The translations under genes were made by a program, and so were the position numbers. Of a stretch of 58,743 nucleotides of DNA, positions 3,101 to 57,400 are shown piece after piece. The notes under the pieces are model-generated. The model did not search any database. It saw only the letters and a program-made list of their open reading frames with translations, and was not told the DNA's origin. The DNA is from Terriglobales bacterium (GTDB taxonomy: Bacteria > Acidobacteriota > Terriglobia > Terriglobales > SCQP01). The stretch lies in assembly GCA_050745565.1 (NCBI GenBank), contig JBOGKJ010000362.1:1-58743 (forward strand). Reading direction: 5' to 3'. Position 1 is the stretch's first letter. Each line of letters starts with the position of its first letter.

Positions 3101-3250
3101 GGCGCGGCCGCCCTTTTCTGGACGCCCTCGTCGTTGCTCCCACCCCAAGGCGCAACCGCCTTGGGGACCCCGGGGGTCGGGCTGCGGCCGAAATGCGCTT
3201 GGCGGCAACGCGCGCCCGCTCTGCTCGGGGAACGCGCCACTGGCGCTTTC
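3101..3250 (+). repeat. Intergenic repeat module A, copy A1
   Basis: GCGGCCGCCCTTTTCTGGACGCCCTC..., hairpin CCCCAAGGCG-CAAC-CGCCTTGGGG (3143-3166), core CTTGGCGGCAACGCGCGCCCGCTCTGCTC. The flanking genes are both on the - strand. Confidence 0.9.
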
Positions 3251-3330
3251 ACCCCGTTGGAATTCCGCGGCCCTTCGCACCGATTTTGCCCGCAGTGCAA
3301 ACGGCGCGACTCCCGCGATCTGCCGGAGCG
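3251..3330 (+). repeat. Intergenic repeat module C, copy C1
   Basis: GGAATTCCGCGGCCCTTCGCACCGATTTTGCCCGCAGTGCAAACGGCGCGACTCCCGCGA. Homologous to 9690-9745 and 57325-57400. Confidence 0.8.
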
Positions 3331-3344
3331 GCAGGTCACCGCAG

Positions 3345-4634
3345 TCACCGCTTCCGGGCCGCCAGGAACGGCCCCAGGCTGGCCAGCAGCGATTGCGGTA
3401 CGCGGGCCAGCAACTCAACCTCGTCGGCGGCGTGGTGCTGGTGCAGGATTTGCCCACGCTCGTGCAGGACATGGAGCCAGCGCCCGGCCGGGTGGGGAAT
3501 CCGCAACTGGACCTCGGCGAGCGTCCCCAGGCTCAATTGGCGATCGAGGGTGGCCAGCAACTGGTCCAGCCCGGCGCCGGTTGCGGCACTGACCAGAAGG
3601 GGGTTGGCGCCCTCGGTCGCGGCCGGCGGCTGGGCGTCGCCAAGCCGGTCGGCCTTATTCCAAATCTGGACCTGGGGGGTGTCGGCCACGCCGAGTTCGC
3701 GCAGCACCTGCTGCACCTGCTGTAGTTGGCGCTCGCGCTGTGGCGCGGTGGCATCGGCGACGACGGCCAGCAGGCTGGCCCGGGTGACCTCTTCCAGGGT
3801 GGCGCGGAAAGCGTTGACCAGGCCGGGCGGGAGGTCGCGCACGAAGCCCACCGTGTCGGACAGCAGCACGTTGCGCCGGGACGGCAGGCGGAGGCTGCGG
3901 AGGGTGGGGTCAAGGGTGGCGAACATGCGCGGCGAGGTCAGCACAGTGGCGCCGGTCAGGCGGTTGAAGAGCGTACTTTTGCCGGCGTTGGTGTAGCCCA
4001 CCAGCGCAATCACCGGCAGCGGCACGCTGGCGCGGCGCTGGCGCTGCTGATCGCGCTGGCGGCGGATGCGCTCCATGGAGCGGCGCAGGGTGGCGATGCG
4101 CTGACGGATGCGTCGGCGGTCGGTTTCCAGTTGGGTTTCGCCGGGGCCGCGGGTACCGATACCGCCGCCCAGGCGCGAGAGCGCCGTGCCCCGGCCGGCA
4201 AGCCGCGGGAGGAGGTAGTCCAACTGCGCCAACTCGACCTGGAGCTGGCCCTCGCGCGAGCGGGCGTGGCGGGCGAAGATATCGAGAATGAGTTGGGTGC
4301 GGGCCAGAACGCGCACCCCGATGGCCTGCTCGAGATTGCGTTGCTGGGTGGGAGAGAGGTCGTTGTCGAAGATGACGAGGTCCACGCCCCGGGCGGCGGC
4401 CTCCAGTTCCTCCAGCTTGCCCTTGCCGATCAGCGTGGCCGGATCGGCATGGGCGCGGCGCTGACTCAGTTCGCCAGCGACGTGGGCGCCGGCGCTTTCG
4501 GTCAATTGGCGCAATTCGGCGAGTTGCGCGCTGGCGGCGGGGGCAAAATCGAGGGCGCCGCTGGCGGCAGCCGCTCGCGCGCCGGGCGCGGGGGCGGCGC
4601 CGAGTTGGACGGCCACCAGGAAAGCGGTTTCCAT
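3345..4634 (-). CDS. hflX: GTPase HflX
   Basis: G1 GYTNAGKSTLFN, G3 DTVGF and G4 NKAD motifs. Starts 17 nt downstream of the hfq stop, the classical hfq-hflX pair. Confidence 0.9.
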   Translation of the reverse strand: METAFLVAVQLGAAPAPGARAAAASGALDFAPAASAQLAELRQLTESAGAHVAGELSQRRAHADPATLIGKGKLEELEAAARGVDLVIFDNDLSPTQQRNLEQAIGVRVLARTQLILDIFARHARSREGQLQVELAQLDYLLPRLAGRGTALSRLGGGIGTRGPGETQLETDRRRIRQRIATLRRSMERIRRQRDQQRQRRASVPLPVIALVGYTNAGKSTLFNRLTGATVLTSPRMFATLDPTLRSLRLPSRRNVLLSDTVGFVRDLPPGLVNAFRATLEEVTRASLLAVVADATAPQRERQLQQVQQVLRELGVADTPQVQIWNKADRLGDAQPPAATEGANPLLVSAATGAGLDQLLATLDRQLSLGTLAEVQLRIPHPAGRWLHVLHERGQILHQHHAADEVELLARVPQSLLASLGPFLAARKR

Positions 4635-4651
4635 ATCCGGCGCGCCGCCCT

Positions 4652-4978
4652 TTAGGCGCCCTCGGCCTTCTCCTCGGCCTGCTCCTCGGCCTGCTCCTGC
4701 TCATGGGGCGGAACGACCGCCTGGGCGGCCTCGCGCGGCCGTGGGCTGGAGAAATGGCGCTCGCCCAAAGGCGAGCGCTGCAGCACCACGGTCGAAATGG
4801 CGTGCTTGAAAATCATCTGCTCCTGACTGCCCGCTTCCAGCACCAGACAATACTTGTCGAAACTGCGGATGCGGCCCGAGAGCTTGACGCCACTCAGCAA
4901 GTAAATGGTGAGGGGCAATTTTTCTTTTCTGGCGTTGTTCAGGAACGAGTCCTGGATATTTTGCGCCGGTTTGTCCAT
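4652..4978 (-). CDS. hfq: RNA chaperone Hfq with an acidic Glu/Ala-rich C-terminal tail
   Basis: Sm core [28 protein letters not shown]...[16 protein letters not shown] lies 7 nt upstream of the ATG. Confidence 0.95.
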
Positions 4979-5007
4979 CGTATTGCCTCCAGAGATAATT
5001 CTAAGAG

Positions 5008-5035
5008 CAATTAGCCATTAGCCATTAGCAATTAG
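5008..5035 (-). repeat. Heptanucleotide tandem array (4 units) in the hfq leader
   Basis: The + strand reads CAATTAG CCATTAG CCATTAG CAATTAG. The hfq sense strand reads CTAATTG CTAATGG CTAATGG CTAATTG. The array ends about 30 nt upstream of the hfq ATG. Confidence 0.9.
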
Positions 5036-5115
5036 CGAGGAAGGCTCGGGCGCGGGCATGATCCGCCAAAGTGTGCGCGACGCACGGAGCAGCGGGCCCC
5101 CACAGCCGACTCGAC

Positions 5116-8100
5116 TCAGTGGGGGCCGGTGATGACCGGGCTGACGGCCGGCAACACCGTCCAGCGGTAGGAGCGGGTCGCGGTTTGACCTTGCGAGTCG
5201 GTGGCCTTGATCGTGAAGGCGTAGGTGCCCTGGGCTGAGGCTCCAGGCACGCCGGCCAGCGTACCGTTGGGGTCGAGCGTGACGCCGGGCGGAAGGTTGC
5301 CGGTCTGCAGGCTGAAGCTGTAGGGCGCGTTGCCGAAGTTGGCGGTCAGAATCGCATTATAGGTTTGCCCCACCTGACCCGGCGCAAGCCCGGTGGTGGT
5401 GATCGCCATGGTGGCGCCAGTGAAGATCACTAGATTGAAGCTCTGGGTGGCCTGGAGGCCGTTGGCGTCCTGCACCAGCAGGGTGAAGTCATAGGAGCCG
5501 GCCGAGGCCGAGCCCGGCACGCCGGAAATCTGTCCGATCGGGTTGATCGTCAACCCGGCCGGCAGACTGCCGCCGACCAGGCTGAAGTTGAATGGCGAGG
5601 CTCCGCCCTGGATGCCCATTTGCTGCAAGTAGCCCTGGCCTTCGACGCCGGAGGGCAGTACCAAGGGCGAAATTGCGAACGGATTCACCACCAGCGTGAA
5701 CGGCTCGACCACGCGGAGCCCGTCGGCATCGGTTTCCTGCACGCTGAAGTTGTACACGCCGGCTTGAGTGGGCGTGCCGGTCAGATCCCAGCCCACCGTG
5801 GTGGCGACGCTCTGAACCGCGTTGATTCCCGGCGGCAGCGTGCCGTTCACCACCACCGGCGTATAGGGGCCGGTGCCGTTGGCCATGGTGATGGTCGCGG
5901 TGTAAGCCACGCCCACGGTGGCCGGCAACAGTTGGCGGCTGGCGGCCTGCAGGGCGGCCACGGTGATGGTGACTGGCAGCCGGGCAGTGAGAGTGGGCAC
6001 GGAGCTGTCGGTGACCTGGATGGTCGCGGTCACGACCGCGGCATTGGCGGGCGTGCCGCTGACCACACCGGCCGAGGACAGCGAAAGTCCGGTGGGCAGC
6101 GCACTGCCAACGACCGAGAAGGTATAGGGCGAGGTGCCGTTGACGGCGGTCAGAGTCAGCGAATAAGGCTCGCCCACCGTGGCCAGCGGCACCGCGGCGG
6201 GCGGCACCACGGCCAGGTGCTGGTTCACGGTCATGGTGATGGTCTGCTGGGTGGCATTGCCGGCGTTGTCGTCCACCTCAAAGGTCACATCCACCGCGCC
6301 GGCCACCAGCGGCGTGCCGCTGATCACCCCGGTGGCACCATCGAGTTGGAGGCCGTCCGGCAGCGGGTTCGAGTTGGTCGCCAGATTAAAGGTGAGCCTG
6401 TCGCCGCCGAGCGCGCCGTTGATCGCGGTAATCGAGGCGTCGTAGGGGATGTTGACGTTGCCGTCCGGCAGCGACGAGGTGAGGATGGTGAGCTGATTGC
6501 CTGGCGTATCCTGCACCACCCACAAACCGGAATTGATGTCGCTGGCGAGAATGTAATGCTGGCCGCCGGTGTTGTAGGCGGCCACGCCGTAAACCATCGC
6601 CTTGGGCGGGTTGTCCACCGCCAGATTGGCGCCGTTGGGATCGGGCGAGTCCGGGGGCACGAACGAGCCCAGCAGCACGGGCGGGTTGACGGAGGTTATG
6701 TCGAGGTCCACCACACCGCCAGAGAACCAGGCGACGTAGGCGTGCGGATCGGCCGTGTTGCCGTTCCAAGCGATGCGATTGGCGGTATAGATGCCGTTGT
6801 CGGGCGCGGGATCGGAGAGCGCCTGCGGGATGTCAAAAAAGTTAGCGATGGTCGAAGTGGACGGCGTGGGCAAATCATAGGTGCGCAGATAGCCCCAGCC
6901 GGAATCGTTGCTCAACGGCACCGCCGAGCCCGCACCGCAGACCACGTCCACCGAGGGGTTGAGCGGCAGGTTGGAGACGCCGTCGCCGCTGGGAGGCGCG
7001 ATGGCGGAGGCGCACACCTGGTCGGCAATCAGCAGTTCCGTGTCGCCCATCACCGGCAGCGCCTGGTTGGTGTTGCCCTCGGGGCTGGAGGGAGTCGAGG
7101 TGGTGGCCAGCGAGCTGAGCGGATAGCTGATGTGGTTAACCAGCACCGCCGGGTTGAAGCTGCGCACCGCGGTGGGATCGCTGACGTCGAGCACCACCAC
7201 GCCCTCGTCCCAGTAGCTCAGGTAGGCCAGCTTGTGGTCGGAGGAAAGCTGGATCGAGCTCAGGAACACGCGCTGGTCGGTGCCCTGCACCGCCTGCGGC
7301 AGCCGCGTGCCAGTGGCCGCCAGTACGCCCCAGTTGCTCACCTCGCGCGGCAGCGACGGGTCGGTGACGTCGACAATGCGCAAGTCACCTTCACCGCCAG
7401 CCGCCTCCGAACCCGGCACCGCCGCCAGCGCATAAATTTTGTCCTGGCTGTGATCCACGATTCCGAACGCGTTGACGGGCCCGGGGACGGCGACGATGGC
7501 CACATCGCCGACACCCTGGCCGCCCGAACTCCAGGTGCCGAGCGCCACCGGCTGCGTCGGGTTGGTGACGTCAAAGAACTCGATTGCGGCATTGGTGGCG
7601 CTCGCCAAGCGCGGGTCGCAGGGCTGCTCGGTCACCGCCATCAGGTCGCCGTGGCTGCCGGAGTGAAAGCCGGGCGAGCTGATGCTGGTGGCCACCTTGG
7701 CCTCTTGCTGGCTGGCGCCGGCGACACCGGCGACGGTGGCCACCAGCGTCGGGTTGGAGATCTGGCTGAGATCCACGATTTTGACCCCGGTGGCGGGACA
7801 ATCGCCGGGGTAGCCGCGGGTACCCACGTAGGCATAGCTGACGCCGCTGTTGGTGGCCGCGGCGACGGTAACGTCCGCATTCTGGCCGTGACCACCGAGG
7901 GCAAGATGGGCGACGGTTGTAAGCGTGGTGGCGGGCGCGCGCACTTTCATCAGGTAGGTGAAGGCCGCCGTTTGCGGACTCGAGGAGCTGTCCACGGCTT
8001 TGATGACGATGGGGTAAATTCCCGGCTGCGTGGGGGTGCCCGAGAGCACGCCCGCTGGACTGAGGATCAGGCCCTGCGGCAGCGCCGCATCGGTTGAAAA

Positions 8101-8364
8101 CGTCACCGGTGCTATCGCGCTCACACCCGTCTGCCCGACGTTGGTCTGAAAACCATAGGCATAGGGCGAGCCAGCCACCGCGCCGGGCAAATGGCCGGTC
8201 GAGGCCGACGACAGGATCAGAAAATTGGCCGTCGCCGGCACAAAGGGCGTGGGCGCCGCGGTGCTGCCCCCGCACGCGCTCAGCCCCAACCCGACAAGCG
8301 CGGCCAAGGCGGCGCCCAGGCAGCGCGCGCGGACGCTATAGTGGCGATAACGGTAAACTCGCAT
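5116..8364 (-). CDS. Large secreted lipoprotein with putative-Ig (He_PIG-like) modules flanking an LVIVD-type beta-propeller region
   Basis: Signal peptide with lipobox LSAC. Six LPxGLxLxxxGxxSGTP modules. Central motifs VKIVDLS, LRIVDVTDPS, VVVLDVSDP and VVDLDITS resemble LVIVD repeats. Confidence 0.7.
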   Translation of the reverse strand: MRVYRYRHYSVRARCLGAALAALVGLGLSACGGSTAAPTPFVPATANFLILSSASTGHLPGAVAGSPYAYGFQTNVGQTGVSAIAPVTFSTDAALPQGLILSPAGVLSGTPTQPGIYPIVIKAVDSSSSPQTAAFTYLMKVRAPATTLTTVAHLALGGHGQNADVTVAAATNSGVSYAYVGTRGYPGDCPATGVKIVDLSQISNPTLVATVAGVAGASQQEAKVATSISSPGFHSGSHGDLMAVTEQPCDPRLASATNAAIEFFDVTNPTQPVALGTWSSGGQGVGDVAIVAVPGPVNAFGIVDHSQDKIYALAAVPGSEAAGGEGDLRIVDVTDPSLPREVSNWGVLAATGTRLPQAVQGTDQRVFLSSIQLSSDHKLAYLSYWDEGVVVLDVSDPTAVRSFNPAVLVNHISYPLSSLATTSTPSSPEGNTNQALPVMGDTELLIADQVCASAIAPPSGDGVSNLPLNPSVDVVCGAGSAVPLSNDSGWGYLRTYDLPTPSTSTIANFFDIPQALSDPAPDNGIYTANRIAWNGNTADPHAYVAWFSGGVVDLDITSVNPPVLLGSFVPPDSPDPNGANLAVDNPPKAMVYGVAAYNTGGQHYILASDINSGLWVVQDTPGNQLTILTSSLPDGNVNIPYDASITAINGALGGDRLTFNLATNSNPLPDGLQLDGATGVISGTPLVAGAVDVTFEVDDNAGNATQQTITMTVNQHLAVVPPAAVPLATVGEPYSLTLTAVNGTSPYTFSVVGSALPTGLSLSSAGVVSGTPANAAVVTATIQVTDSSVPTLTARLPVTITVAALQAASRQLLPATVGVAYTATITMANGTGPYTPVVVNGTLPPGINAVQSVATTVGWDLTGTPTQAGVYNFSVQETDADGLRVVEPFTLVVNPFAISPLVLPSGVEGQGYLQQMGIQGGASPFNFSLVGGSLPAGLTINPIGQISGVPGSASAGSYDFTLLVQDANGLQATQSFNLVIFTGATMAITTTGLAPGQVGQTYNAILTANFGNAPYSFSLQTGNLPPGVTLDPNGTLAGVPGASAQGTYAFTIKATDSQGQTATRSYRWTVLPAVSPVITGPH

Positions 8365-9439: not shown

Positions 9440-9750
9440 CATTGTTGGCGCGGGCCCCGGCGCGTGCTCGGCTGAGACGCTCGCACCGCCGTCGCCGCAC
9501 TCGGTGGGCATGGGTTGGCCGGGCGTTCGAGCCCCAGCCCAGCCTGCGGTTGACGTGGCCATGCCACGTCAACCTGGGGCCGCGCCGGCCGCGTCTCCCC
9601 GGGGGCGCAAACGCATGCGCTTGCCCCTTCGGAATTACGACCACCCCAACACGCAAGCGTGCCGGGGGCCCCGGTACGCGGCCCTTTGCGCCGGCTTTGC
9701 CCGCCGTGCAAAAGGCGCGACCCCCGCGAAGGGTCGTTCAGCCACCTCCA
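9440..9750 (+). repeat. Composite mosaic repeat: B-prime 5' part, module E (with an 11-bp-stem palindrome at 9549-9573), A-type hairpin variant (9644-9667), module C copy C2
   Basis: TTGGCGCGGGCCCCGGCGCGTGCTCGGCTGAGACGCTCGCACCGCC matches 20828- and 41484-. GTTGACGTGGC-CAT-GCCACGTCAAC. TTTGCCCGCCGTGCAAAAGGCGCGACCCCCGCGA matches C1 and C3. Confidence 0.85.
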
Positions 9751-9784: not shown

Positions 9785-12700
9785 ATGTCCCCCCGGCTTG
9801 GCCTCGCCGCGGCATTTTGTCTGTTTTTGGTCGGCGCCGGCGCCGCCGCCCAGACGCCGCGCCGGCTGCCCGACAATCCGGGCGCGCGCGCCGCCTGGTT
9901 CATGCACGCGCGGCGCAGTGCGGGCCAACCCCCGGCGGCGCGTCTGCAGCGCGCGCGCGTCCAGCGCCAGGCGACGGGCTATGCGCCGCGCCGTTCGGTG
10001 GTGTTCGAAGGCGCGCCTGGCCTGCCCGGCTTTTCGCCCACCCGCAGCGGCACCTGGCAGGCGCTGGGACCGGAACCGCTGGACACCACCGGCTCAACCG
10101 CCGGACTGAACGGGCCGCCAGGCCAGGACTACGGCGCCATTTCCGGCCGCGTGACCGCCATCGCCATTGACCCAGCCGACCCCACCGGCAACACCGTGTA
10201 TGTGGGCGCGGCCTTTGGCGGCGTCTGGAAATCCACCAACGCACTGAGCGCCTCGCCCACCTTCACGCCGCTCACCGACACGCAACCCACGCTTTCGGTC
10301 GGCGCCATGGCGGTGGATGCCAGCACCTCGCCCACCACCATCATCATCGGCACCGGCGAGGACAATGACGCGCTCGATTCCTATTACGGCGATGGCCTGC
10401 TCGAATCCAGCGACGGCGGTATGACCTGGACGCAGGTCACCAGCGCCGACAGCGGAACGAATAGCTTCGTCGGGCACAGCTTCTCGCGCATCCTATTCGA
10501 CCCGGCCAACCCCCAAATCGTGCTGGCGGGCGTGACCAGCCACGACATCGGCACCCAGGTCTCGGGGGCGACCGGCATCTATCGTTCCGTGGACCACGGC
10601 AAGACGTGGTCATCGGTGCTCGCCGTCTCCGGCGGCCGCAGCGCCATGGACATCGTCTATGACGCCACCAATCAGGCCTACTACGCCGCCATCGCCACCG
10701 AAGGCATTTACAAATCCACCAACCAAGGCGCCACCTGGACCCCAACCACAACCCCGTTTGCCAACGGATTGCCGACGACCATTCAGAATGGCAACAGTTA
10801 CGATTTCGAGCGCGCCGCGCTGGCCGCGCGCAACGGCACCATTTACGCGTTGATCGGCGATTCGTCGGGGTCGCTGGGCAGCCTCTCGACACCCACGCCC
10901 TGCACCGCGGCCAACACCCCCAACTGTGACACCGGGCTGGTGCAGTCCACCGACGGCGGCGCCACCTGGAAGCCGATCCCGGTGCCGGACGCCTCGTCGG
11001 CGCTAGGCGGGACCTTCAGCAACATCTTTTGCGAGAGCATCGGCGGCGCCGCCACACTGTGCCAGAGCATGTACGACATTGAAATGGCGGCCCCGCCCGG
11101 AGGCGGCGGCCTCGTGGTCGGAGGATTGGACATCTGGAGCACGGCCACCGTGCCGGCCATGACCGCCAACGGCGTGAGCAGCGCCTGGACCGACCTGACC
11201 CAGGCTTATGGGAACGCGCTGGGGGAAATCCACACCGACCAGCACGCCATCGCGCTGCTTGACGCCAACACCTGGTTCGTTGGCAATGACGGCGGCGCCT
11301 GGGCCACCACCAGCGCCGGCGCCAGTTGGAAGGACCTCAACGCCACGCTGGCGACGCTGCAGTTCTACAGCGTCGCGCCCGACCAGCAAACGCCGGACGT
11401 CTGGATCGGCGGTTCGCAGGACAACGGCACCGCCAGACTGAGCGGCGGCGGACTGAGCTGGACGCGCTGGTTCTGGGGCGATGGCGGCTTCACCGCCACT
11501 AACCCGGCCTCGGCTTCGCAGTATTTCACCGAGAACTACAACATCGGCGTGTGGCGCTCGGATCAGGCCGGCACCGACACCGACAATTCACTTACCGATG
11601 TCGTCGATGACGGCATCATCGCCGACGCCTCGGATTTTTACGTGCCCTTCCTTGTGCGTCCGGCGCCCAACACCACCTCGCTACTGTTGGGCACCTGCCG
11701 CGTGTGGGCCGGCCCGGACAATGACGCGTCATCGCCGATTTCGGGCGCGGGCGGCTGGTTCGCCTACAGCGGCGACCTCACCACCGGCGGCTCCGGCACG
11801 GGCACGTGCGCCAACAACGGCTCCTACATTACCGACGTCGCCGTCTCGGCAAGCAACCCTGACATTGCCTGGGCGGTTACCAACGATGGCAACGTCGAAG
11901 AGACCGTGAACCTCACCTCCGCCACCACCAATGCGCCCGCCGTCTGGACCAACAAGGCCGCGACGCCGCTGCCGGCCCAGGCCGTGTTCAGTTCGGTCGC
12001 CATCAACCCGGTGAACCCGAACGCGGTCTACGTCGGGGCGCAGGGTTTCGGCACCGGCCATGTCTACAAGTCCAGCGACGGCGGCAACAGTTGGACCAAC
12101 ATCAGCGGCAACCTCCCCGACGCGCCGGTGAACTGGATCCTGATTGACCCCAAGGGGCCGAACAACAATATTTACATTGCCAGCGATGTCGGCGTGTTCG
12201 TGGCCACCGACGGGGGCGTGGCAAACGAGCAGTGGACGCAGGTGGGGCAGGGGCTGCCGGACACGGCGGTGCTGCAAATCGCGCTGTCGCCTGCGACCTG
12301 GCCCACGCGCGAACTGGTCGCCGCCACCCACGGCCGCGGCATGTATCAGATTGCGCCGCTGACCACGCCGAGTTTCTCGCTCGCCGCCTCGCCCGCCACG
12401 CAAACCGTGCTGGACGGCGCGGCCGCCAGTTTCACCCTCCAGGTCACCGGCGCCAACGGCGAGGCCGGCCCGGTCACGCTGAGCTGCACGGCGCCGGCAA
12501 CCGGCTGCTCGATCTCGCCCACCTCGGTGGCGCCCGGCGCCACAGCGACGGTGACGCTGGCGGCCAGCGCGGTGGCGGCGGGCGCCAACACCGTCACCGT
12601 CTCCGGCACCGACGGCGTCAACACCGAAACCGTCTCGGCCACCATCACGGGCCAGAACTTTCAGGTGGCCGCCAGCCCGGCGCAGCAGGGTGTGAGTTCC

Positions 12701-14341
12701 GGCTCCGGCGCCAGCCTGAGCCTGAAGGTGACCGCCGCCAGCGGCTACAGCGGACCCATCGCGCTGGCTTGCACCGCGCCGGCTGCTGGCTGCAGCGTGA
12801 GCCCGGCGAGTCTTCCCGGCAGCGGCACGGCCACCGTCACGATTGCCGCCAGCTCGCTCCCAATCGGCTCCAACACCATTACGCTGAGCGCCACCGGCAG
12901 CGGCGTCACCGAGACCGCCACGGCCACCGTGAACGTGCAGATGTTCGCCGTTGCCCTCGCCGCACCCCCGGCCGCCCTCCTCGCCGGCGCCGGAGCCAGC
13001 CTGAACCTCACCACCACCGCCGCCAGCGGCTTCACGGGAACGCTGGCGCTCGCCTGCACCGCGCCCGCCTCCGGCTGCAGCGTCAGCCCCGCGAGCGTCG
13101 CCGCAGGCGGCTCGGCCATGGTGTCGCTCGCGGCCAGCGCGCTGAACGGTGGCGACAACACCGTGACAGTGACGGCCACCTCGAGCGGCGTGACGCAGAC
13201 CGCGTCGGCCACCGTGACAGTCGAGGATTTTGGCGTCGCCCTCGCCGCGCCCGCCACGGCCGTCGTGAGCGGCAGCCCGGCCACGCTGCCGCTCACGACC
13301 AGCGCCATCGGCGGCTATAGCGGCACGCTGGCGCTCGCCTGCACCACGCCCGCCACCGGCTGCACCGTCAGCCCCACCAGTGTCGCCGCGGGCGGCTCGG
13401 CCACGGTAACCGTCGCCGCCACCGCGCTGGCGCCTGGCGCCAACACCGTCACTGTCGCCGCCACTGGCGGCGGCCTCACCCATTCCGCCACCGCCACCGC
13501 CACGGTCGGGGACTTTGGCGTGGCGCTCACCGCGCCCTCCCAGGCTGTGGCCGTCGGCACCGCCGCAACGTTGGGGCTGACCACCACCGCGATCAGCGGC
13601 TACAGCGGCTCGCTGGCGCTCGCCTGCACCGTGCCCGCTTCCGGTTGCACCGTCAGCCCCGCCACCGTCAGGGCCGGCGGCACGGCCACCGTCACCGTCG
13701 CCGCCAGCGCGCTGACGCTCGGCGCCAACACCGTCACCGCCACTGCCACCGGCAGCGGCCTCACCCACACGGCGTCCGCCACCGCCAACGTAGCCGACTT
13801 CAGCCTCACTGCGACCTCATCCTCGGCCAGCGTAACGCCAGGCCAGAGCGCGACCTATGCCCTGACGCTCACGGCCGAGGGCGGCTTCAGCCGCGCCGTT
13901 GGCCTGGCCTGCACCGGCGCGCCAGCGACCACCAACTGTACCGTCTCGCCTGCTTCGCTCACCCCCGGCGCCAGCGGCACCGCCGCCACCGTTACCGTCA
14001 CTACCACCGCAGCCGGCGCCGTTGTGCCGCCGCCGGCGGGCCCGCCGAGTGGGGGCGGCCGCGATTGGCTGCTCGCCCTGCTGGCGCTCGCCGCGCTAGC
14101 GCTGGCCACGGCGTACGCAATGAGCCGCCGCATCTCCGTCACGGCCGTGACTTGGGTCCGCACCGGGCTCGGGGCCGCGCTCATCGGTGGCACGCTGCTG
14201 CTGGCGGGCTGCGGCACGCCGAATCAGCCCGTCCAGCCGGTCACGACCCCCGGCACGCCGCAAGGCAGCTACACGTTCACCGTCACCGCCAGCGGCGGTT
14301 CGGCCAAGCACACCTTGCCACTGACACTGATGGTTCAGTAA
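9785..14341 (+). CDS. Giant secreted BNR/sortilin-like beta-propeller protein with six tandem Ig-like domains and a hydrophobic C-terminal region
   Basis: Signal peptide MSPRLGLAAAFCLFLVGAGAAAQ. SxDxGxTW motifs (SSDGGMTW, SVDHGKTW, STNQGATW, STDGGATW, SSDGGNSW). Six 95-aa repeats, each with LACTxPxxGCxVSP. The ORF track start at 9659 runs through repeat DNA, so ATG 9785 is preferred. Confidence 0.7.
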   Translation: MSPRLGLAAAFCLFLVGAGAAAQTPRRLPDNPGARAAWFMHARRSAGQPPAARLQRARVQRQATGYAPRRSVVFEGAPGLPGFSPTRSGTWQALGPEPLDTTGSTAGLNGPPGQDYGAISGRVTAIAIDPADPTGNTVYVGAAFGGVWKSTNALSASPTFTPLTDTQPTLSVGAMAVDASTSPTTIIIGTGEDNDALDSYYGDGLLESSDGGMTWTQVTSADSGTNSFVGHSFSRILFDPANPQIVLAGVTSHDIGTQVSGATGIYRSVDHGKTWSSVLAVSGGRSAMDIVYDATNQAYYAAIATEGIYKSTNQGATWTPTTTPFANGLPTTIQNGNSYDFERAALAARNGTIYALIGDSSGSLGSLSTPTPCTAANTPNCDTGLVQSTDGGATWKPIPVPDASSALGGTFSNIFCESIGGAATLCQSMYDIEMAAPPGGGGLVVGGLDIWSTATVPAMTANGVSSAWTDLTQAYGNALGEIHTDQHAIALLDANTWFVGNDGGAWATTSAGASWKDLNATLATLQFYSVAPDQQTPDVWIGGSQDNGTARLSGGGLSWTRWFWGDGGFTATNPASASQYFTENYNIGVWRSDQAGTDTDNSLTDVVDDGIIADASDFYVPFLVRPAPNTTSLLLGTCRVWAGPDNDASSPISGAGGWFAYSGDLTTGGSGTGTCANNGSYITDVAVSASNPDIAWAVTNDGNVEETVNLTSATTNAPAVWTNKAATPLPAQAVFSSVAINPVNPNAVYVGAQGFGTGHVYKSSDGGNSWTNISGNLPDAPVNWILIDPKGPNNNIYIASDVGVFVATDGGVANEQWTQVGQGLPDTAVLQIALSPATWPTRELVAATHGRGMYQIAPLTTPSFSLAASPATQTVLDGAAASFTLQVTGANGEAGPVTLSCTAPATGCSISPTSVAPGATATVTLAASAVAAGANTVTVSGTDGVNTETVSATITGQNFQVAASPAQQGVSSGSGASLSLKVTAASGYSGPIALACTAPAAGCSVSPASLPGSGTATVTIAASSLPIGSNTITLSATGSGVTETATATVNVQMFAVALAAPPAALLAGAGASLNLTTTAASGFTGTLALACTAPASGCSVSPASVAAGGSAMVSLAASALNGGDNTVTVTATSSGVTQTASATVTVEDFGVALAAPATAVVSGSPATLPLTTSAIGGYSGTLALACTTPATGCTVSPTSVAAGGSATVTVAATALAPGANTVTVAATGGGLTHSATATATVGDFGVALTAPSQAVAVGTAATLGLTTTAISGYSGSLALACTVPASGCTVSPATVRAGGTATVTVAASALTLGANTVTATATGSGLTHTASATANVADFSLTATSSSASVTPGQSATYALTLTAEGGFSRAVGLACTGAPATTNCTVSPASLTPGASGTAATVTVTTTAAGAVVPPPAGPPSGGGRDWLLALLALAALALATAYAMSRRISVTAVTWVRTGLGAALIGGTLLLAGCGTPNQPVQPVTTPGTPQGSYTFTVTASGGSAKHTLPLTLMVQ
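12371..14083 (+). repeat. Six tandem 285-nt (95-aa) intragenic repeats
   Basis: The Phe codon that opens each unit sits at 12374, 12659, 12944, 13229, 13514 and 13799, exactly 285 nt apart. CTGGCGCTCGCCTGCACC is shared verbatim by units 3-5. Confidence 0.9.
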
Positions 14342-14350
14342 GAGCCGAAG

Positions 14351-14520
14351 CGGCGCGGCCGCCAGTCTCAGGACGCCCTCCCGCAGCTCCCACCCCAAGG
14401 CGCAAGCGCCTTGGGGGCCCGGGGGTCGGGCTGCGGCCGGAACTCGCTTGGCGGCAACGCGAGCCCGCTCTGCTCGGTGAACGCGCCACCGGCGCCTTCT
14501 CCCGTCCAAGTTGCCTCGTC
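14351..14520 (+). repeat. Module A, copy A2 (long 3' variant)
   Basis: Full-length copy with hairpin 14393-14416. Core CTTGGCGGCAACGCGAGCCCGCTCTGCTC. 3' end CCGTCCAAGTTGCCTCG. The flanking genes are both on the + strand. Confidence 0.9.
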
Positions 14521-41482: not shown

Positions 41483-41483
41483 A

Positions 41484-42162: not shown

Positions 42163-42173
42163 GGCAACCTGGA

Positions 42174-43733: not shown

Positions 43734-43806
43734 GAACAGGGACTCTTATCGCGGCATGGTCCAGGCTGGGGTTGCCCCGCAACTGCACTGCGCTAGCCGC
43801 TGGCTA

Positions 43807-45060: not shown

Positions 45061-45071
45061 GATCGTGATCC

Positions 45072-46526
45072 TTAGCGAGCGGGCAGATAGTGCCGGTAGT
45101 CGGTCGCGGCGACGCCCAGCGCCTGGGCGAGCGTGGCCTTGGCCAGGTTGTAGCCATAGAGGCTGGCGATGTAGGCTTCGTCGGCTTCGGCCACCGACTG
45201 CTGAGCCTGCACCACATCGAGATTGTCGGCCACGCCGGCCTTGAACCGGTCCTGGGCCAGCGTCAGTTCCTGCTGCGCCAGGCTGCGGGTATTGCTCGCC
45301 ACGCCCACCTGCTGGCGGTTCTCTTGCAGATCGAGCAGCGCCGAGCGCACCTGCACGGCGATAGCCGCCCTGAGGTCGGCCGCGCGGTTTTCGGCGTCGC
45401 GCACTTGCGCGGCGGCCCGCAGCCGCTGAGCGCGCAACAGCCCGCCGGAAAACACCGGCACCTCAATCGTGGCGCCGACGGAAAAGATGGGGTGGTTGCT
45501 GTCGATTTCGTGGCCGATGGTGCCGTAGTTGCCCTGGAGCGAGAGAGTGGGCAGACGCGCGTCGCGCGCGGCCGCCACCAGCAACTGCGCCGACCGGACG
45601 GTTTGCTGCGCGGCGCGGAAATCCGGGCGCGTCGCCAGCGCCTGGGCCACCGCCGCCGCCGGCGTGGGCGGATTCAAAGCCTCGAACGCGGCCACGGTGG
45701 CGAAGCTGAACTGCTGCTCGAGCGGCAGGCCGATGGCGCGCGCCAGCGTCAGCCGCTGCTTGGCGAGTGCGTTTTCCTGGGCGGTGAGCTGCTGCTGCTG
45801 GCGGTCCTGCTGCACGGCGGCGCGCACCACGGTCAGCGCTTCCACGGTGCCCGCCTTCAGCATGTCCTGCGCCTGCTGCAAGGCGTTCTGCGCGGTGGCG
45901 AGCTCGGCCCGGGCGGCCTCGACCCGGCTCTGGTCTGCCACCCCCAGCAGATACTGGTTGGCCACCGCCAGCACCACCAGGTTGCGCGTGGCGTCGTAGT
46001 TGAGTTGGGCCACGCTTTGCAGCCCGCTCGCCGCGCGCGCGCTTTGGATGGCGGACAGGTCAAGCAACGGCACGTTGGCGGCGGCGCTGGCCTGAAACAC
46101 ATTGAACGGGCCCACGAGCTGCGGAAATCCCGGAAAGCTGAAGCCAAACGCGGCCAGGTTGATCTTTTGCCGCAGCTCGCCGGCGCTCGCATTCACGCTC
46201 GGCAACAGGCCCGCCAGTGCGCTCAGACGCTGCGCCCGCGCCTGCTGGCTTAGATTGGCCGCCAGCAGCGGAGCCAGATTCTGGCGCAGGCCGCGCGCGA
46301 TGGCGTCGCCCAGCGTCAGCGGCAGCGTGCCGGGCATCACGGCGCCGACCGGCACGCCCCCGGCCAAATCGTTCATGCCCGGCGCCGCGAACGGCACCTG
46401 CACCGGTGGCGCGACCACCGACCGCGCCGGCGGCAGGCCTTGCGCCAGCGCCATGGTTGCCATTAACCCCGTCCCCAACGCCACCACTACGGCTTGCCTC
46501 ATGCTTTTGCCCCGCAACCATTCCAA
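45072..46526 (-). CDS. TolC-like outer-membrane efflux factor
   Basis: Signal peptide and two OEP repeats with coiled-coil Ala/Gln-rich segments. The start is either 46526 (MEWL) or 46502 (MRQA), which abuts the tetR stop. Confidence 0.85.
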   Translation of the reverse strand: MEWLRGKSMRQAVVVALGTGLMATMALAQGLPPARSVVAPPVQVPFAAPGMNDLAGGVPVGAVMPGTLPLTLGDAIARGLRQNLAPLLAANLSQQARAQRLSALAGLLPSVNASAGELRQKINLAAFGFSFPGFPQLVGPFNVFQASAAANVPLLDLSAIQSARAASGLQSVAQLNYDATRNLVVLAVANQYLLGVADQSRVEAARAELATAQNALQQAQDMLKAGTVEALTVVRAAVQQDRQQQQLTAQENALAKQRLTLARAIGLPLEQQFSFATVAAFEALNPPTPAAAVAQALATRPDFRAAQQTVRSAQLLVAAARDARLPTLSLQGNYGTIGHEIDSNHPIFSVGATIEVPVFSGGLLRAQRLRAAAQVRDAENRAADLRAAIAVQVRSALLDLQENRQQVGVASNTRSLAQQELTLAQDRFKAGVADNLDVVQAQQSVAEADEAYIASLYGYNLAKATLAQALGVAATDYRHYLPAR

Positions 46527-47113
46527 AACAAATCAAAAACGAAGCTCTCGCCGTCCAGGCCGGCTTCCAGCCCCGGCACGCCCGAGAACCGCATCGTGAA
46601 TACACCCTTCACCAAGTCCATGAGGGCGACGGCCGCAGCCTGCGTGTTGACGGCGCGCAACTCGCCCGAGCGCACCCCGGCATCCAGCACGCCCGCCAGA
46701 TAGGAGGCCGCCTCCAGGTACAGCGCATGCATCGGCCCATCTTTGGTCCGGCACATGTGCCCAAACTCGGTCACGTACATCCGCACAAACTGCTCGTCGG
46801 AGCGCAGGAACTCGAAACGCACCCGCAGCCCCGCCTGAATCTTCGCCCGCGCGCCTTCAACGGCCTCCATGTCGCATTTCATCTCGTCCAACATCGTCCG
46901 GAAGCGCGAGCTCAGGGCGGCCCAGAAAATGGCGTCCTTGCTGGCGTAATAGAGATAGATAGTGCCCTTGGCGACGCCGGCCTCAGCCGCAATCAGGTCC
47001 ACGGTCGCATCCGCATAGCCGTGCTCGCCGAAGACCTTGCGGGCGGCCTCAAGAATTTCCGCCTCACGGAATTCGGTCAGCGCCTGGCGGCGAGTTTTGC
47101 CTTGCAATGTCAT
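46499..47113 (-). CDS. TetR/AcrR-family transcriptional repressor
   Basis: HTH ILEAARKVFGEHGYADATVDLIAAEAGVAKGTIYLYYASKD. First gene of the efflux operon. A palindromic operator lies 12 nt upstream. Confidence 0.9.
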   Translation of the reverse strand: MTLQGKTRRQALTEFREAEILEAARKVFGEHGYADATVDLIAAEAGVAKGTIYLYYASKDAIFWAALSSRFRTMLDEMKCDMEAVEGARAKIQAGLRVRFEFLRSDEQFVRMYVTEFGHMCRTKDGPMHALYLEAASYLAGVLDAGVRSGELRAVNTQAAAVALMDLVKGVFTMRFSGVPGLEAGLDGESFVFDLFWNGCGAKA

Positions 47114-47757: not shown

Positions 47758-47797
47758 TTAGAGCAGAGGCGGCACGGTCGCCGTTTCGAAGTTGGCG

Positions 47798-47965
47798 GCG
47801 GCGCGGCCGCCCTTTTCAGGACGCCCCATCCCTGACAATTCCAGCGCGCAGGTGCGTCGGGTGCCCCCTGGTCGGTCTGCTGTCGCAATTCGTTTGGCGG
47901 CAACGCGCACCCGCGCTGCTCGGTGCACGCGCCAGCGGCGCCTTCACCCGTCCAAGTTGCCTGGT
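47798..47965 (+). repeat. Module A, copy A8 (most divergent copy, long 3' variant)
   Basis: GGCGCGGCCGCCCTTTTCAGGACGCCCC..., core TTTGGCGGCAACGCGCACCCGCGCTGCTC, 3' CCGTCCAAGTTGCCTGG. The flanking genes are divergent. Confidence 0.8.
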
Positions 47966-50047: not shown

Positions 50048-50138
50048 CATTATTTGGCGCGGGGCCTGGCGTGGCACGGCCACCCGCTTGCATTACTTGG
50101 CGCGGGGCCTGGCGTGGCTCCGCCACGCAACCCGCTTA
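50048..50138 (+). repeat. Module F: two tandem ~43-48-nt units immediately after the mlaD-like stop
   Basis: CATTATTTGGCGCGGGGCCTGGCGTGGCACGGCCACCCGCTTG followed by CATTACTTGGCGCGGGGCCTGGCGTGGCTCCGCCACGCAACCCGCTTACG. The second unit holds the hairpin GCGTGGC-TCC-GCCACGC. Confidence 0.85.
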
Positions 50139-50339
50139 CGATTGTGCGGGCGTCCAGCGCATGCGCCGGCGGAGCCAGCCAGTGCGCCGCGCAGCGTGCT
50201 ATGACCACGCTGTCACGCGCATGAAATATCCTGCAGCTTATGTTTTTAGTTTGACTCTAAGCCGGTTGTGGACATACAACCAAGTAACATCTACGCCCTA
50301 TTCCGGGCGGCACTCGGACGAAAGAGGAGCGACTTTTTT

Positions 50340-54186: not shown

Positions 54187-54220
54187 GTTACTTGGCGCGG
54201 GTGGCGGGGCCCCGCCGCCC
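54187..54220 (+). repeat. Module F-like single unit immediately after the TonB-dependent receptor stop
   Basis: GTTACTTGGCGCGGGTGGCGGGGCCCCGCCGCCCC shares TTACTTGGCGCGGG with 50091-. It contains the palindrome GGCGGGGCCCCGCC. Confidence 0.65.
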
Positions 54221-54314
54221 CATTCCCGCCCTCGCAGGAAAGGGTTGGGCGCCGGCTTCACTCGCCGGCAGGGCCGGCGAGAGTGGTAGGGCCGGGGGGA
54301 ATGGGTCCCGTGAC

Positions 54315-55797: not shown

Positions 55798-55950
55798 CGC
55801 GGCCAGGCCAGCCGCACTTTTCTGAACGCCCTCCCGTAGCCACTCCGGCGTTGGTCGGGCTGAGGCCGGAATTCGCTTGGCGGCAACGCGCGCCCGCTCT
55901 GCTCGGTGAACGCGCCGCCGGCGCTTTCACCCGCCCAAGTTCCCTCCTCC
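55798..55950 (+). repeat. Module A, copy A9 (central hairpin missing, long 3' variant)
   Basis: CGCGGCCAGGCCAGCCGCACTTTTCTGAACGCCCTCCCGTAGCCACTCCGGCGTTGGTCGGGCTGAGGCCGGAATTCGCTTGGCGGCAACGCGCGCCCGCTCTGCTCGGTGAACGCGCCGCCGGCGCTTTCACCCGCCCAAGTTCC. Confidence 0.85.
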
Positions 55951-56021
55951 GGTGTCTCCATCAGCACCCTGGGGCGCATCCAAGCGCGCTGGGCCATCGC
56001 AATGGACCAGAGGAGACACTC

Positions 56022-56900
56022 ATGACCACGAACAATTCACAGTTGGCGGCGGCTTTCTTCTCCGACACAGGCAAGGCGGAGAAGGCGGTAAGAGCGTTGC
56101 GGCAGGCAGGCTTCGCCCAGATCGGCGTAGCCGCGCAGGATGAAAACAAGGAACGCAAGGTCGCTGAGCGCGGGCCGGCGCAGCCGGGCGTGGCGGTAAG
56201 CCCGGATGCGGGCCCGGAGCTGCGCGAGTCCATGGGCGAGAGCGAGTACGCCGACTCGGGCGATCTGCGCGGAACGCTGCTGGCCGCCGGGTTCAGCGAG
56301 GACCAGGCCGACCACTTTGAACAGCAGATCTCGGACCATGGAATATTGGTCACCGTGCAGGCGCCGGAGGAGCGCTCGGAGGAGGCGCGGCGGACGCTCG
56401 AAAGCTGCGGCGGCGTGCTGGGCCCGGCTCCGGAAGCGCGCACCACGGCGGCAGCGCCGATGCCGGTGCGGACGGCGGCAGTGCCGTCGGCGGCGCCCGC
56501 GGCCGACATGAGCGGGATGCGCCGCATCCAACTGCGGGGCGAGCTGCTGCGCGTCCACACGGATCGGGTGCAGCGGGGCGAAGCGCGCATATCCAAGGAG
56601 GTCGTGACCACGCCCGAAACCGTCGAGGTGCCGGTGTCACGCGAAGACCTGGTGGTGGAAACGCATCCGGCCGCGGCCGGCACGCCCGCCAGTGGGCCCA
56701 TCGCCGAGGGCGGCGAAATTCGCGTACCGCTCAGCGAGGAGCACGCGCGGGTGGAAAAGGTGCCGGTGGCAATCGAGGAAGTGGACATCGGCAAGCGGAC
56801 GAGCGAAGGGGTGGAACACGTCACCGAGCAGGTCAAGCGGGAAAAACTGAAGTTGGAAGATATCTCCCGCGATCAGCCTGGCGCCGACCGCGCCGCCTGA
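56022..56900 (+). CDS. YsnF/AvaK (DUF2382) domain stress-associated protein
   Basis: N-terminal AAFFSDTGKAEKAVRALRQAGF (general-stress 17M-like). C-terminal duplicated DUF2382 pattern (VSREDLVVETHP...VPLSEEHARVEKVPVAIEEVDIGKR). AGGAGA lies upstream. Confidence 0.75.
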   Translation: MTTNNSQLAAAFFSDTGKAEKAVRALRQAGFAQIGVAAQDENKERKVAERGPAQPGVAVSPDAGPELRESMGESEYADSGDLRGTLLAAGFSEDQADHFEQQISDHGILVTVQAPEERSEEARRTLESCGGVLGPAPEARTTAAAPMPVRTAAVPSAAPAADMSGMRRIQLRGELLRVHTDRVQRGEARISKEVVTTPETVEVPVSREDLVVETHPAAAGTPASGPIAEGGEIRVPLSEEHARVEKVPVAIEEVDIGKRTSEGVEHVTEQVKREKLKLEDISRDQPGADRAA

Positions 56901-56938
56901 GCGCCGGCCAGCGGGCGGAGCAGGGATAGGCTGGGGCG

Positions 56939-56966
56939 CCGTCCGAGCCCACTGGGACTCGGACGG
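56939..56966 (+). terminator. 9-bp-stem hairpin downstream of the DUF2382 gene
   Basis: CCGTCCGAG-CCCACTGGGA-CTCGGACGG lies 39 nt after the stop. It is followed by CCCTTCTCCC, which is only weakly T-rich. Confidence 0.35.
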
Positions 56967-57074
56967 CCCTTCTCCCACAAGGACGCCCGATCTCCGCGCG
57001 GAGCCGGGGCGATGCGCGGGGAGTTCCGCGCCCATAAGTGCAGGATCAGGGCCGGCTGTAGCCGGGCAGAGCCG

Positions 57075-57180
57075 GCACGGCCGCCCTTCTCAGGACACCC
57101 TCCCGATGGTCCCACCCCAAGTCGCAAGCGCCTTGGGGCCCCGGGGACGCGCGTCCGCTCTGCTCAGGGCGCGTCCAAAT
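57075..57180 (+). repeat. Module A, copy A10 (middle segment deleted, short 3' variant)
   Basis: GGCACGGCCGCCCTTCTCAGGACACCCTCCCGATGGTCCCACCCCAAGTCGCAAGCGCCTTGGGGCCCCGGGG joined to ACGCGCGTCCGCTCTGCTCAGGGCGCGTCCAAAT. Confidence 0.85.
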
Positions 57181-57210
57181 AGTTGGCGCGGGCCTCAGCG
57201 CGGCTTCGCC
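57181..57210 (+). repeat. Module D, copy D2
   Basis: AGTTGGCGCGGGCCTCAGCGCGGCTTCGCC matches 39126-39157. Confidence 0.75.
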
Positions 57211-57324
57211 ATCCCCGCACCCGTTTTCAGGCAGGCCGGACCGGGGACCCCGTGAGCCCCGGTCGAGCCTGCGGCCGCGCCAGCTTCGTTTGCCGGGGCG
57301 GTGCGAGCGCCAGTGGCGTTTGCA

Positions 57325-57400
57325 GCCCTTCGAAATTCCGCAGCCTTTCGTGCCTACTTTGCCCACGGTGCAAAAGGCGCGCCCCCCGCGAGTTCCCTCG
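57325..57400 (+). repeat. Module C, copy C3
   Basis: CCCTTCGAAATTCCGCAGCCTTTCGTGCCTACTTTGCCCACGGTGCAAAAGGCGCGCCCCCCGCGAGTTCCC aligns with C1 and C2. Confidence 0.8.

Follow-up and report, generated by a model that had tools for sequence, protein, structure and literature searches.

Co-oriented, modular hairpin repeats gained in an uncultured Terriglobales lineage

Nearly all work on the small interspersed repeats of bacteria concerns Proteobacteria, Firmicutes and Cyanobacteria. In the BOX elements of Streptococcus pneumoniae and the ERIC and RU elements of enterobacteria, subunits are present, absent or repeated between conserved end modules, and the IS200/IS605 insertion sequences have miniature derivatives such as the PATEs of haloarchaea and the ISDra2-related small repeats of Deinococcus. 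In the proteobacterial repetitive extragenic palindromes (REPs), the bacterial interspersed mosaic element (BIME) consists of a REP and an inverted REP (PMC3333891), and the foot of the REP palindrome carries an unpaired GTAG or CGTC (PMC3733652, PMC3333891). Y1 transposases work on a single DNA strand, recognise subterminal hairpins and favour the lagging-strand template, from which an orientation bias results (PMC3333891, PMC6006769); RAYT-like Y1 genes with flanking hairpin repeats, called TIRYTs, are common in Acidobacteriaceae (PMC3733652) and frequent in Acidobacteria (also PMC6006769). Here we describe a family of small GC-rich hairpin repeats—element A and its companion modules B to G—in contig JBOGKJ010000362.1 of assembly GCA_050745565.1, a stretch of 58.7 kb (58,743 nucleotides, hereafter the window) from an uncultured lineage of the Terriglobales (Acidobacteriota), dominant soil bacteria.

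Co-orientation, empty orthologous sites in relatives and an in-frame insertion without target-site duplication, taken together, mark these repeats as very probably a lineage-specific mobile element family and not a mere repeat family. An earlier note on this DNA, which had recognised the repeats themselves, missed all three of these features. The whole picture is, in our opinion, best explained by small, non-coding, non-autonomous mobile families within one narrow Terriglobales lineage, putatively moved in trans by a HUH/Y1 transposase; we would give this explanation a probability of about 0.6.

Co-orientation and gain of the elements

The genes of the window were mapped by codon usage, and its 18 gaps of at least 100 nt were compared all against all by blast; element A was counted with an nhmmer profile built from aligned copies. 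The profile finds exactly ten A copies in the window, all on the + strand, which is the number given in the earlier note. The 29-mer core of A has eight matches at no more than three mismatches (3198, 14447, 28561, 29190, 39312, 41431, 47893 and 55876), all on the + strand and none in 100 shuffles, and the two copies reported without the left half of the core, at 33296 and 57068, indeed lack it. Repeat finding and the comparison of gaps recovered the other modules where they had been placed: B in four copies (starting at 9445, 20828, 33239 and 41484), C in three (3266, 9677, 57339), D in two (20556, 29218), E in two (9563, 28634) and F in three units (50050, 50093, 54188). The combinations described before (A+C, A+B, B'+A, A+D, B+E+C and others) are present as well. 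Modules occupy 13 of the 15 gaps of at least 200 nt, with 35979–36562 and the truncated gap 1–319 as exceptions, and thus almost every long gap, as had been claimed. Their share of the intergenic DNA was overstated as "most", since matches between gaps cover 2255 of the 6434 nt (35%) in gaps of at least 100 nt. It is also important to note that the density is patchy or regional, because a further 10.5 kb of the same species (GCA_975322235.1) has no module in its four gaps of 170–270 nt.

Every blast match between two gaps is +/+, and the only minus-strand matches are two self-palindromes. Counting about 13 independent co-oriented gaps, the chance of such a result under random orientation is about 2 × 0.5^13. 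Transcription does not set this orientation, because A copies lie antisense to genes, between divergent genes and between convergent ones: those at 3098 and 39213 are antisense to the gene they follow, the one at 47792 stands between divergent genes, and those at 29085 and 41330 stand between convergent genes. A copy from a sister metagenome-assembled genome (MAG; locus L002) is likewise antisense to its upstream gene. The GC3 skew is −0.052 for + genes and −0.156 for − genes, with a strand component of about +0.05, and gene strands stand at 26:13 in favour of +; such values suggest that the window may lie within one replichore, with + as the leading strand.

Only two gaps with A copies allowed a comparison with relatives, both near recN. 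Four relatives (L029, L030, L032 and L041) share the gene order tonB-exbD-exbB / recN / cupin / HAD / suf with the window, and in all of them the cupin and recN stop codons are 4–45 nt apart, against 358 nt in the window, where A and D are found. Similarly, the distance from the HAD stop codon to the cupin start is 0–10 nt in L030, L032 and L041 and 236 nt in the window, where A and E are found. Most of the extra length in both gaps is made up of A with D or E. The elements were gained in this lineage. The A+E block lies just upstream of a TATAAT box, at a place where the relatives have the end of the HAD gene. In the window (28675–28698), in L029 (about 8095–8115) and in L030 (about 8075–8095), this box precedes the ATG of the small cupin gene by 7 nt, a spacing that suggests a leaderless or near-leaderless cupin transcript.

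An insertion can be read to the base in the sister MAG JBOGKL (L003), where a 111-nt A element sits inside a gene for a family-2 glycosyltransferase (GT2), in frame and without a stop codon. The encoded protein is longer by 37 residues, placed exactly between the Q and the W of the motif K-x-R-Q|W-E-S, across which seven GT2 homologues of 361–376 aa align gap-free. The insert spans GCGGCACGGCC to GTTGCCTCGT, and its flanks, CGGCAA | TGGGAG, have no base in common with the element ends; hence, the element entered without target-site duplication. An A element of equal length (111 nt) occupies an intergenic site in locus L001. Seven further copies with intact ends showed neither a target duplication nor a conserved target, only a loose NNGG on one flank.

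The window holds an intragenic case of its own. On the minus strand, about 60 nt at 15168–15232 are some 83% identical to the head shared by modules B and D and form 20 codons in the linker of an S9 peptidase; this 20-aa stretch is missing from the closest homologue (60% identity). No other module copy in the window is inverted, and because of this fragment the earlier statement that the repeats are absent from coding regions went too far. Another candidate for a module insertion, the internal segment 37274–37330 of an ADOP/MacB-type permease gene (36563–39049, − strand), was rejected, since homologues carry a loop there too. An intergenic stretch of 57 nt beside the A copy at 39213 (39153–39209) is 91% identical to this segment in the same orientation. 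Given that the loop of the homologues is Pro/Ala-rich at this very place, the gene copy is native and the intergenic one is a copied gene fragment.

Anatomy of the modules and their hairpins

Element A begins with GCGGCRCGGCCGCC at its 5' end and finishes with CCAAGTTGCCTCGT at its 3' end. Its parts are a head, GCGGCGCGGCCGCCCTTCTCAGGACGCCCTCCCG; an optional hairpin of about 38 nt, a2 (CCACCCCAAGGCGCAAGCGCCTTGGGGGCCCGG); a segment a3, GGTCGGGCTGCGGCCGGAATTCGCTTGGCGGCAAC, missing from two copies; a nearly invariant core, GCGCGCCCGCTCTGCTC; and a tail of one of two types. Type i carries a hairpin, GGTGAACGCGCC-ACC-GGCGCCTTCACC, type ii is AGGGCGC, and both terminate in GTCCAAGTTGCCTCGT. In the core, the copies agree with each other at 93% on average; the corresponding values are 88% for a3, 83% for the head, 76% for a2 and 54% for the tail.

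All ten copies, listed here along the + strand, can be described as variants of this plan. Copy 1 (3098–3255; nhmmer E = 1e-40, no mismatch in the core) has the head, a2, a3, core and a type i tail and is followed by module C; it lies 3' of hflX, a − strand gene, and is hence antisense to it. Copy 2 (14347–14519, nhmmer end 14510) is full length with a type i tail and begins 5 nt past the stop codon of the gene for a 1521-aa BNR protein. Copy 3 (28458–28618), with a type ii tail and a variant a2 stem, begins at the HAD hydrolase stop codon. Copy 4 (29085–29223), in the convergent cupin/recN gap, has module D in place of a tail. Copy 5 (33296–33428, nhmmer end 33415) is preceded by B' and lacks a3 along with the left half of the core. 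Copies 6 (39213–39363, nhmmer end 39361; between two − strand genes) and 7 (41330–41482; followed by B) both carry a type ii tail. Copy 8 (47792–47965, nhmmer end 47956), located in a divergent promoter region, is the most diverged of all. Copy 9 (55803–55950, nhmmer end 55935) has a type i tail and no a2, and copy 10 (57068–57185), which again lacks a3 and the left half of the core, is followed by a G head and, further on, by C.

Two smaller pieces of A were seen as well. Immediately 5' of copy 8, a 29-nt unit (47769–47797) joins the A head GCGGCACGGTCGCC almost directly to an A-tail-like TCGAAGTTGGCG; it could be what an excision left behind or a copy with an internal deletion. A lone A-head-like sequence, GCGGCGCGGTCGCCCACTGGGCGAC, occurs at 36027–36060 in an otherwise repeat-free gap of 584 nt, which also holds a canonical T-tailed terminator (36233–36206, − strand) serving the permease gene.

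Modules B and D have a 25-nt head (CATTGACGGGCGCGGGCCCCTGCCC) and a tail of about 50 nt in common, and only their middles differ. All the modules that follow are on the + strand. B was found at 9445–9522 (head TTGGCGCGGGCC and B middle), at 20828–20954 (with the head and tail that D also has) and at 41484–41590 (with the shared tail, directly 3' of A copy 7), while a partial B' at 33239–33298 lies directly 5' of A copy 5. D stands at 20556–20662, where the head and tail are the same as in B and the middle and tail form a perfect palindrome of 14 bp, and at 29218–29324, where a copy 94–96% identical to the first is fused to A copy 4. Module C occupies 3266–3318, 9677–9729 and 57339–57391 and also occurs in JBOGKX (L022) and DATKSZ (L029). 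Module E (9540–9600) contains a perfect 12-bp palindrome, GGTTGACGTGGC/GCCACGTCAACC, and has a partial copy at 28634–28656. Two tandem F units at 50050–50145, built of TTGGCGCGGGG, a hairpin and CCCGCTT, follow directly after an mlaD-like gene, and an F-type unit at 54188–54240 directly follows the gene for an outer-membrane beta-barrel protein. The G head, TTGGCGTGGGCCTCAGCGCGGCTTCGC, is found at 39122–39155 and again at 57176–57209, with 94% identity over 34 nt. A head of the TTGGCGCGGGCC type also begins the F and G units and is always on the + strand in intergenic DNA.

Strong hairpin folds characterise all modules, the perfect palindromes of E (12 bp) and D (14 bp) included. In element A, the head pairs with a3 (CGGCCGC/GCGGCCG, GCCC/GGGC), and a2 stands at the tip of the long hairpin that results. 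The a2 hairpin, with its 11-bp stem in about 38 nt, is represented by 8–10 copies in the window, and a free-standing copy nested in module C (9642–9680) indicates that it is an independent, insertable unit. In the relative L029, a2 is at the same position in C but has an entirely different, perfect stem of 12 bp. An alignment of ten a2 units shows changes on both sides at four of the 11 pairs, a covariation that none of 500 shuffles reached; therefore, the hairpin structure is what is conserved. Whole-element consensus RNA folds on either strand revealed no covariation beyond the a2 hairpin.

The two strands fold somewhat differently. On the + strand, the head hairpin is CGCCCT-TCTC-AGGACG, with a C.A mismatch retained in every copy; on the − strand it becomes CGUCCU-GAGA-AGGGCG, where the mismatch turns into a G.U (G.T) wobble and the loop is GAGA or GAAA. 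Its closing pair has changed from U-A to A-U in the copy at 33296, and a G-to-A change in the copy at 57068 keeps the pairing on the − strand only. The a2 hairpin is paired at 94.5% on the − strand versus 90.0% on the + strand, with eight wobbles versus three, and the folding energy favours the − strand in eight of the ten A copies. Overall, the strand difference is modest, and much of it was inherited and did not arise independently.

RNA roles have been proposed for many REPs, ERICs and Correia elements, and one could suppose that the present elements are likewise signals that are transcribed within untranslated regions, 3' or 5', where they would stabilise transcript ends, act as terminators or form regulatory structures, and that selection has kept their spread. 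Such a role would fit several observations: half of the A copies (5/10) begin within about 30 nt past the upstream stop codon, the hairpins are strong, and one of them shows compensatory changes, the loops of the − strand resemble stable GNRA and CUUG tetraloops, and a core of 26–29 nt is far better conserved than the rest of A. However, orthologous gaps are only 0–45 nt long in relatives, so the same operons work without the elements. Their orientation is independent of the adjacent gene (3098, 39213 and L002 are antisense, and 47792 is between divergent genes), and the better-pairing strand runs antisense to most of the upstream genes. A T tail is absent from every module, though the genome uses canonical T-tailed terminators such as the one at 36233–36206, and no terminator-like site was found within the modules of the region 27000–46999. 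No internal promoter-like box, conserved upstream sequence or Rfam match accompanies the elements, and one copy sits in frame within a gene. We therefore consider a primary role as host RNA signals unlikely, but the elements may have a secondary effect on transcripts.

[quoted passage not shown] The size of 110–170 nt, the non-coding character, the intergenic location and the shared ends with variable interiors would all agree with it, and the head (GGACGC-CCT) is weakly complementary to a type ii tail (AGGGCGCGTCC). Yet GCGGCRCGGCCGCC and CCAAGTTGCCTCGT are not complementary, nor do the outermost ends, GCGGCRCGGCC... and ...GTTGCCTCGT, form an inverted repeat, so that the terminal inverted repeats of MITEs (about 15–30 bp) are missing. 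Neither the insertion in the glycosyltransferase gene nor any of the seven other copies has a target-site duplication, and DDE MITEs insert both ways, while the intergenic copies are all co-oriented here. A MITE origin is hence improbable, even more so than a signalling role. What the ends of A do offer are hairpins alike in direct orientation, the head hairpin about 10 nt from one end and the core/tail hairpin about 15 nt from the other. Shared ends with variable middles, as in the A subtypes and in B versus D, would be expected if a mobilising enzyme reads the ends.

Distribution and chromosomal setting

The same DNA, at 99.8–99.9% identity, was recovered in GCA_975322235.1, GCA_050745685.1 and GCA_050745545.1 and in the Logan assembly of SRR27067714. 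GCA_975322235.1 (L004), an independent assembly, carries these mosaics at 99.8% identity, and mosaics are also present in JBOGKO (L020) and JBOGKR (L128), which may be bins of one co-assembly and not independent. At the left end of the window, the contigs from other assemblies stop where the window stops, and several MAG contigs terminate within elements.

Such breaks raise the question of whether the mosaics are chimeric joins made by metagenome assembly through a few real repeats, a concern that the earlier note had voiced. It is nourished by one case: in GCA_975322235.1, the A copy at 14347 has the 5' half of another A copy and is joined to an unrelated locus. The contig concerned, CDICNZ010000366.1 (L004 578–744 / L129 9846–10012), combines the S9 peptidase side of the window with a locus encoding a 171-aa protein, NUDIX, AhpC and RecJ, and 19 of its 28 differences from the window fall inside the A element. 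This hybrid copy is either an assembly chimera or a true recombination between copies. As for the mosaics in general, the agreement of other assemblies at 99.8–99.9% across the mosaic gaps, a gene order over the A gaps at 28458 and 29085 that is the same as in relatives, and the differences of the copies among themselves, which exclude a single collapsed sequence, make an assembly artefact scarcely credible.

The hybrid copy could also be taken as an exchange within the element, in line with a view of the repeats as site-specific recombination sites (attC-like or Xer/dif-like) or as a by-product of recombination or gene conversion between intergenic regions. Co-orientation and location just past stop codons recall attC arrays, and GGCAAC of the core and GTTGCC of the tail are reverse complements, like the R''/R' boxes of attC. 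The consensus of the attC boxes is RYYYAAC/GTTRRRY. CGGCAAC and GTTGCCT do not fit it, however, and the neighbours of the elements are large housekeeping genes on both strands with conserved synteny, not cassettes. No integrase or recombinase is found among the genes of the window, and an in-frame intragenic insertion, like the nesting of a2 in A and C, is unlike recombination sites. We regard this explanation as very improbable, though less so than an artefact.

The family has a narrow range. Among 185,579 species genomes, the 26-nt core pattern occurs only in three contigs of two sister MAGs (JBOGKL and JBOGKX), and a degenerate head pattern gave one new true match among the matches listed, in a JBOGKX contig (L022), the rest being due to chance. 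The 21-nt core has 13 matches in JGI metagenome contigs, all by chance in coding DNA, and viral contigs, phages and plasmids gave no match to the elements. Module C and an a2-like hairpin reach the relative L029 (70% RecN identity) at a non-orthologous site, while a profile search did not find element A there. Scans with Rfam returned no match at the gathering threshold and three at E ≤ 5, all unrelated and in coding DNA; the searchable literature contains no description of such repeats in Terriglobales or Acidobacteria that we could find. The repeat family is thus previously uncatalogued with respect to Rfam, phages, plasmids, viral contigs and the searchable literature.

Regarding its setting, the window is ordinary chromosome of an uncultured Terriglobales (Acidobacteriota) lineage, with 68% G+C and with nearest species-level genomes, in the same set of 185,579, at only 62–74% RecN identity. 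It encodes an OPT transporter, hflX-hfq, yceG, two BNR/sortilin-like proteins, an S9 peptidase, the suf operon, recN, exbB-exbD-tonB, two ADOP/MacB-type permeases, a LysR regulator, an MFS/HlyD/OEP efflux set, ogt, mlaD, a TonB-dependent-like barrel protein, an M28 peptidase and an OmpR-type regulator. Pfam searches with all genes of the window revealed no transposase, integrase or phage gene, and no tRNA or tmRNA was found in it.

We would also like to mention some other features of the window. Upstream of the gene for the OPT transporter, a non-coding stretch of about 640 nt that is non-repetitive and comparatively rich in AT (2453–3095; no Rfam match) could contain a long leader or an unannotated small gene. 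An AT-rich tandem motif, ATTAGCC/ATTAGCA, repeated four times at 5005–5035 in the 137-nt gap upstream of hfq, is conspicuous at this G+C content. Within the gene for the 1521-aa BNR/sortilin-like protein, a 285-nt unit is repeated 3.8 times in tandem (12699–13767, 75% matches), probably encoding repeated Ig-like domains, and motifs of the BNR/Asp-box type (S-x-D-x-G-x-T-W) occur repeatedly both in this gene and in the 1092-aa gene at 17255–20533.

Proposed mode of movement and relation to known systems

The elements very probably are or were mobile and non-autonomous. Each of them is a series of imperfect hairpins between conserved ends, with a variable interior that is exchanged between copies. 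A HUH/Y1 transposase acting in trans—IS200/IS605-, RAYT- or TIRYT-like—would cut the hairpin-marked ends on one strand, at replication forks, so that the orientation of the elements would follow the direction of replication. Elements enter the chromosome without duplicating their target, and those that persist are nearly all intergenic or lie in frame within tolerant loops of proteins. They also land inside or beside each other, and the mosaics are due to such insertions. We infer a HUH/Y1 enzyme because intergenic co-orientation is combined with subterminal hairpins in the absence of terminal inverted repeats and with entry that leaves no target duplication. Movement by the Y1 mechanism specifically remains a tentative idea, to which we give clearly less than even odds.

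Several points weigh against the explanation as a whole. Pfam searches detected no transposase of any kind in the window or in the element-bearing loci, the sister-MAG neighbours included, and tblastn with seven Y1 proteins (six acidobacterial TIRYTs and the E. coli RayT, from the supplement of PMC3733652) over all the DNA collected, that is, the window and the element-bearing loci, gave no match. The hairpin repeats at 80 Acidobacteriaceae TIRYT loci share no sequence with the modules. Co-orientation is known from a single stretch of 58.7 kb, and its link with replication relies on a weak estimate of skew; if + is the leading strand, the hairpins would pair slightly better off the lagging-strand template, a misfit with the simple picture of IS608. 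One inverted fragment exists, the intragenic one in the S9 peptidase gene. With differences of 7–45% among the copies, varying by segment, the family is old; the strongly conserved core could reflect a host function and not recognition by a transposase; and the hybrid A copy means that recombination or assembly chimerism between copies also shapes what we see.

It is tempting to go further and suppose a polar population of single-strand transposons oriented by replication, with co-oriented head-to-tail mosaics whose orientation flips at the origin and the terminus. We hold this to be doubtful, more so than the Y1 mechanism itself. If it were true, a single domesticated HUH/Y1 enzyme, or a few of them, would read the hairpin cassettes A, a2, B/D, C, E and F, the system would be the first of such miniature elements described in Acidobacteriota, and its copies would mark replichores. 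A further possibility is that the host uses the elements as strand-specific signals. Should orientation track replication, single-strand transposition at forks would have left a natural record in an uncultured phylum, and the elements would also provide a test of whether RAYT/TIRYT-type enzymes can spread direct-oriented composite elements. Independently of this, the elements break short-read MAG assemblies, and knowing the family helps to judge how such genomes were assembled and binned; through in-frame insertions, the repeats add peptide segments to proteins, as the palindromic elements (RPEs) do in Rickettsia.

The elements resemble the REPs, BIMEs and REPINs of Proteobacteria, which are mobilised by RAYTs, in several ways. 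Both kinds of repeat are short GC-rich imperfect palindromes, dense between genes and often just past stop codons, with mosaic clusters and occasional intragenic copies; they code for nothing and are presumably mobilised in trans by a HUH enzyme present in one copy. The a2 unit in particular is a repeated imperfect palindrome of the appropriate length (20–40 nt). The comparison with BIME/REP mosaics drawn in the earlier note holds for dense, modular, structured intergenic repeats and fails in two defining respects, as inverted pairs and the GTAG/CGTC tag are absent. No two of the 18 gaps share an inverted match, so there are no REP/iREP pairs; a2 has CCCA/CCAC as its 5' flank and GCCC as its 3' flank, GTAG is absent from the hairpins of head and core, and CGTC appears only 3' of the tail hairpins on the + strand, not at the 5' foot position. 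Besides, the units are longer here (110–170 nt), contain several different hairpins, are co-oriented and are unrelated in sequence, and no RAYT was found in the window or the element-bearing loci.

The miniature derivatives of IS200/IS605 are similar in another way. Like them, the present elements have no terminal inverted repeats, cause no target duplication and carry subterminal hairpins near both ends, and they show strand-specific stem features and, within one 58.7-kb stretch, an orientation bias of the sort that insertion at forks would produce (PMC3333891, PMC6006769). They differ in that the DNA searched yielded no parent element that has tnpA or tnpB together with matching ends, no conserved target of 4–5 nt lies beside one end, the better-pairing strand is not the one predicted from IS608 if + is leading, and the modular nesting is much more elaborate.

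From the same phylum come the TIRYT-associated repeats (Di Nocera et al. 2013, PMC3733652), hairpins of 30–46 nt whose CCCC...GGGG stems are like that of a2 (CCCCAAGGCGC..GCGCCTTGGGG). In the Acidobacteriaceae loci that we collected (L048–L127), an inverted repeat flanks the RAYT-like Y1 gene in 43 of 45 cases (the first 45 full-length loci of the 80). Most flanks are a hairpin of the form GGGTGCCCC-stem-loop-stem-GGG(A), and the stems differ between genomes yet stay paired; these loci apparently represent a large, little-studied set of REP-like systems in Acidobacteria. However, the TIRYT repeats bear a GGGTG 5' tag and form inverted pairs around the gene, they have no sequence match to our modules, and no TIRYT gene was recovered from the element-bearing lineage.

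The RPEs are 100–150 nt long and, like the present elements, can insert into genes in frame and so add a peptide segment. The parallels are the 37 codons in the sister-MAG glycosyltransferase, whose reading frame stays open, and the 20 codons in the S9 peptidase, and the likeness is one of behaviour only: sequence and host are unrelated, and our elements are overwhelmingly intergenic. RPE-4 and RPE-6 correspond to CGTC-tagged REPs (PMC3733652), a tag that is missing here. BOX, ERIC and RU elements (for RU, PMC2759123) resemble the present family in their modular build, stable secondary structure, intergenic location and rare intragenic copies, while their sequences are unrelated, they occur in both orientations, and ERIC has terminal inverted repeats. 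Overall, we conclude that the family is closest in behaviour to REP/BIME/REPIN, the IS200/IS605 miniatures and the RPEs, and that it is classifiable neither as REP/BIME nor as a classical MITE. In structure it agrees with the miniatures of the IS200/IS605 type, although their defining enzyme was not found in the DNA searched; its most unusual features are complete co-orientation and a head-to-tail cassette architecture.

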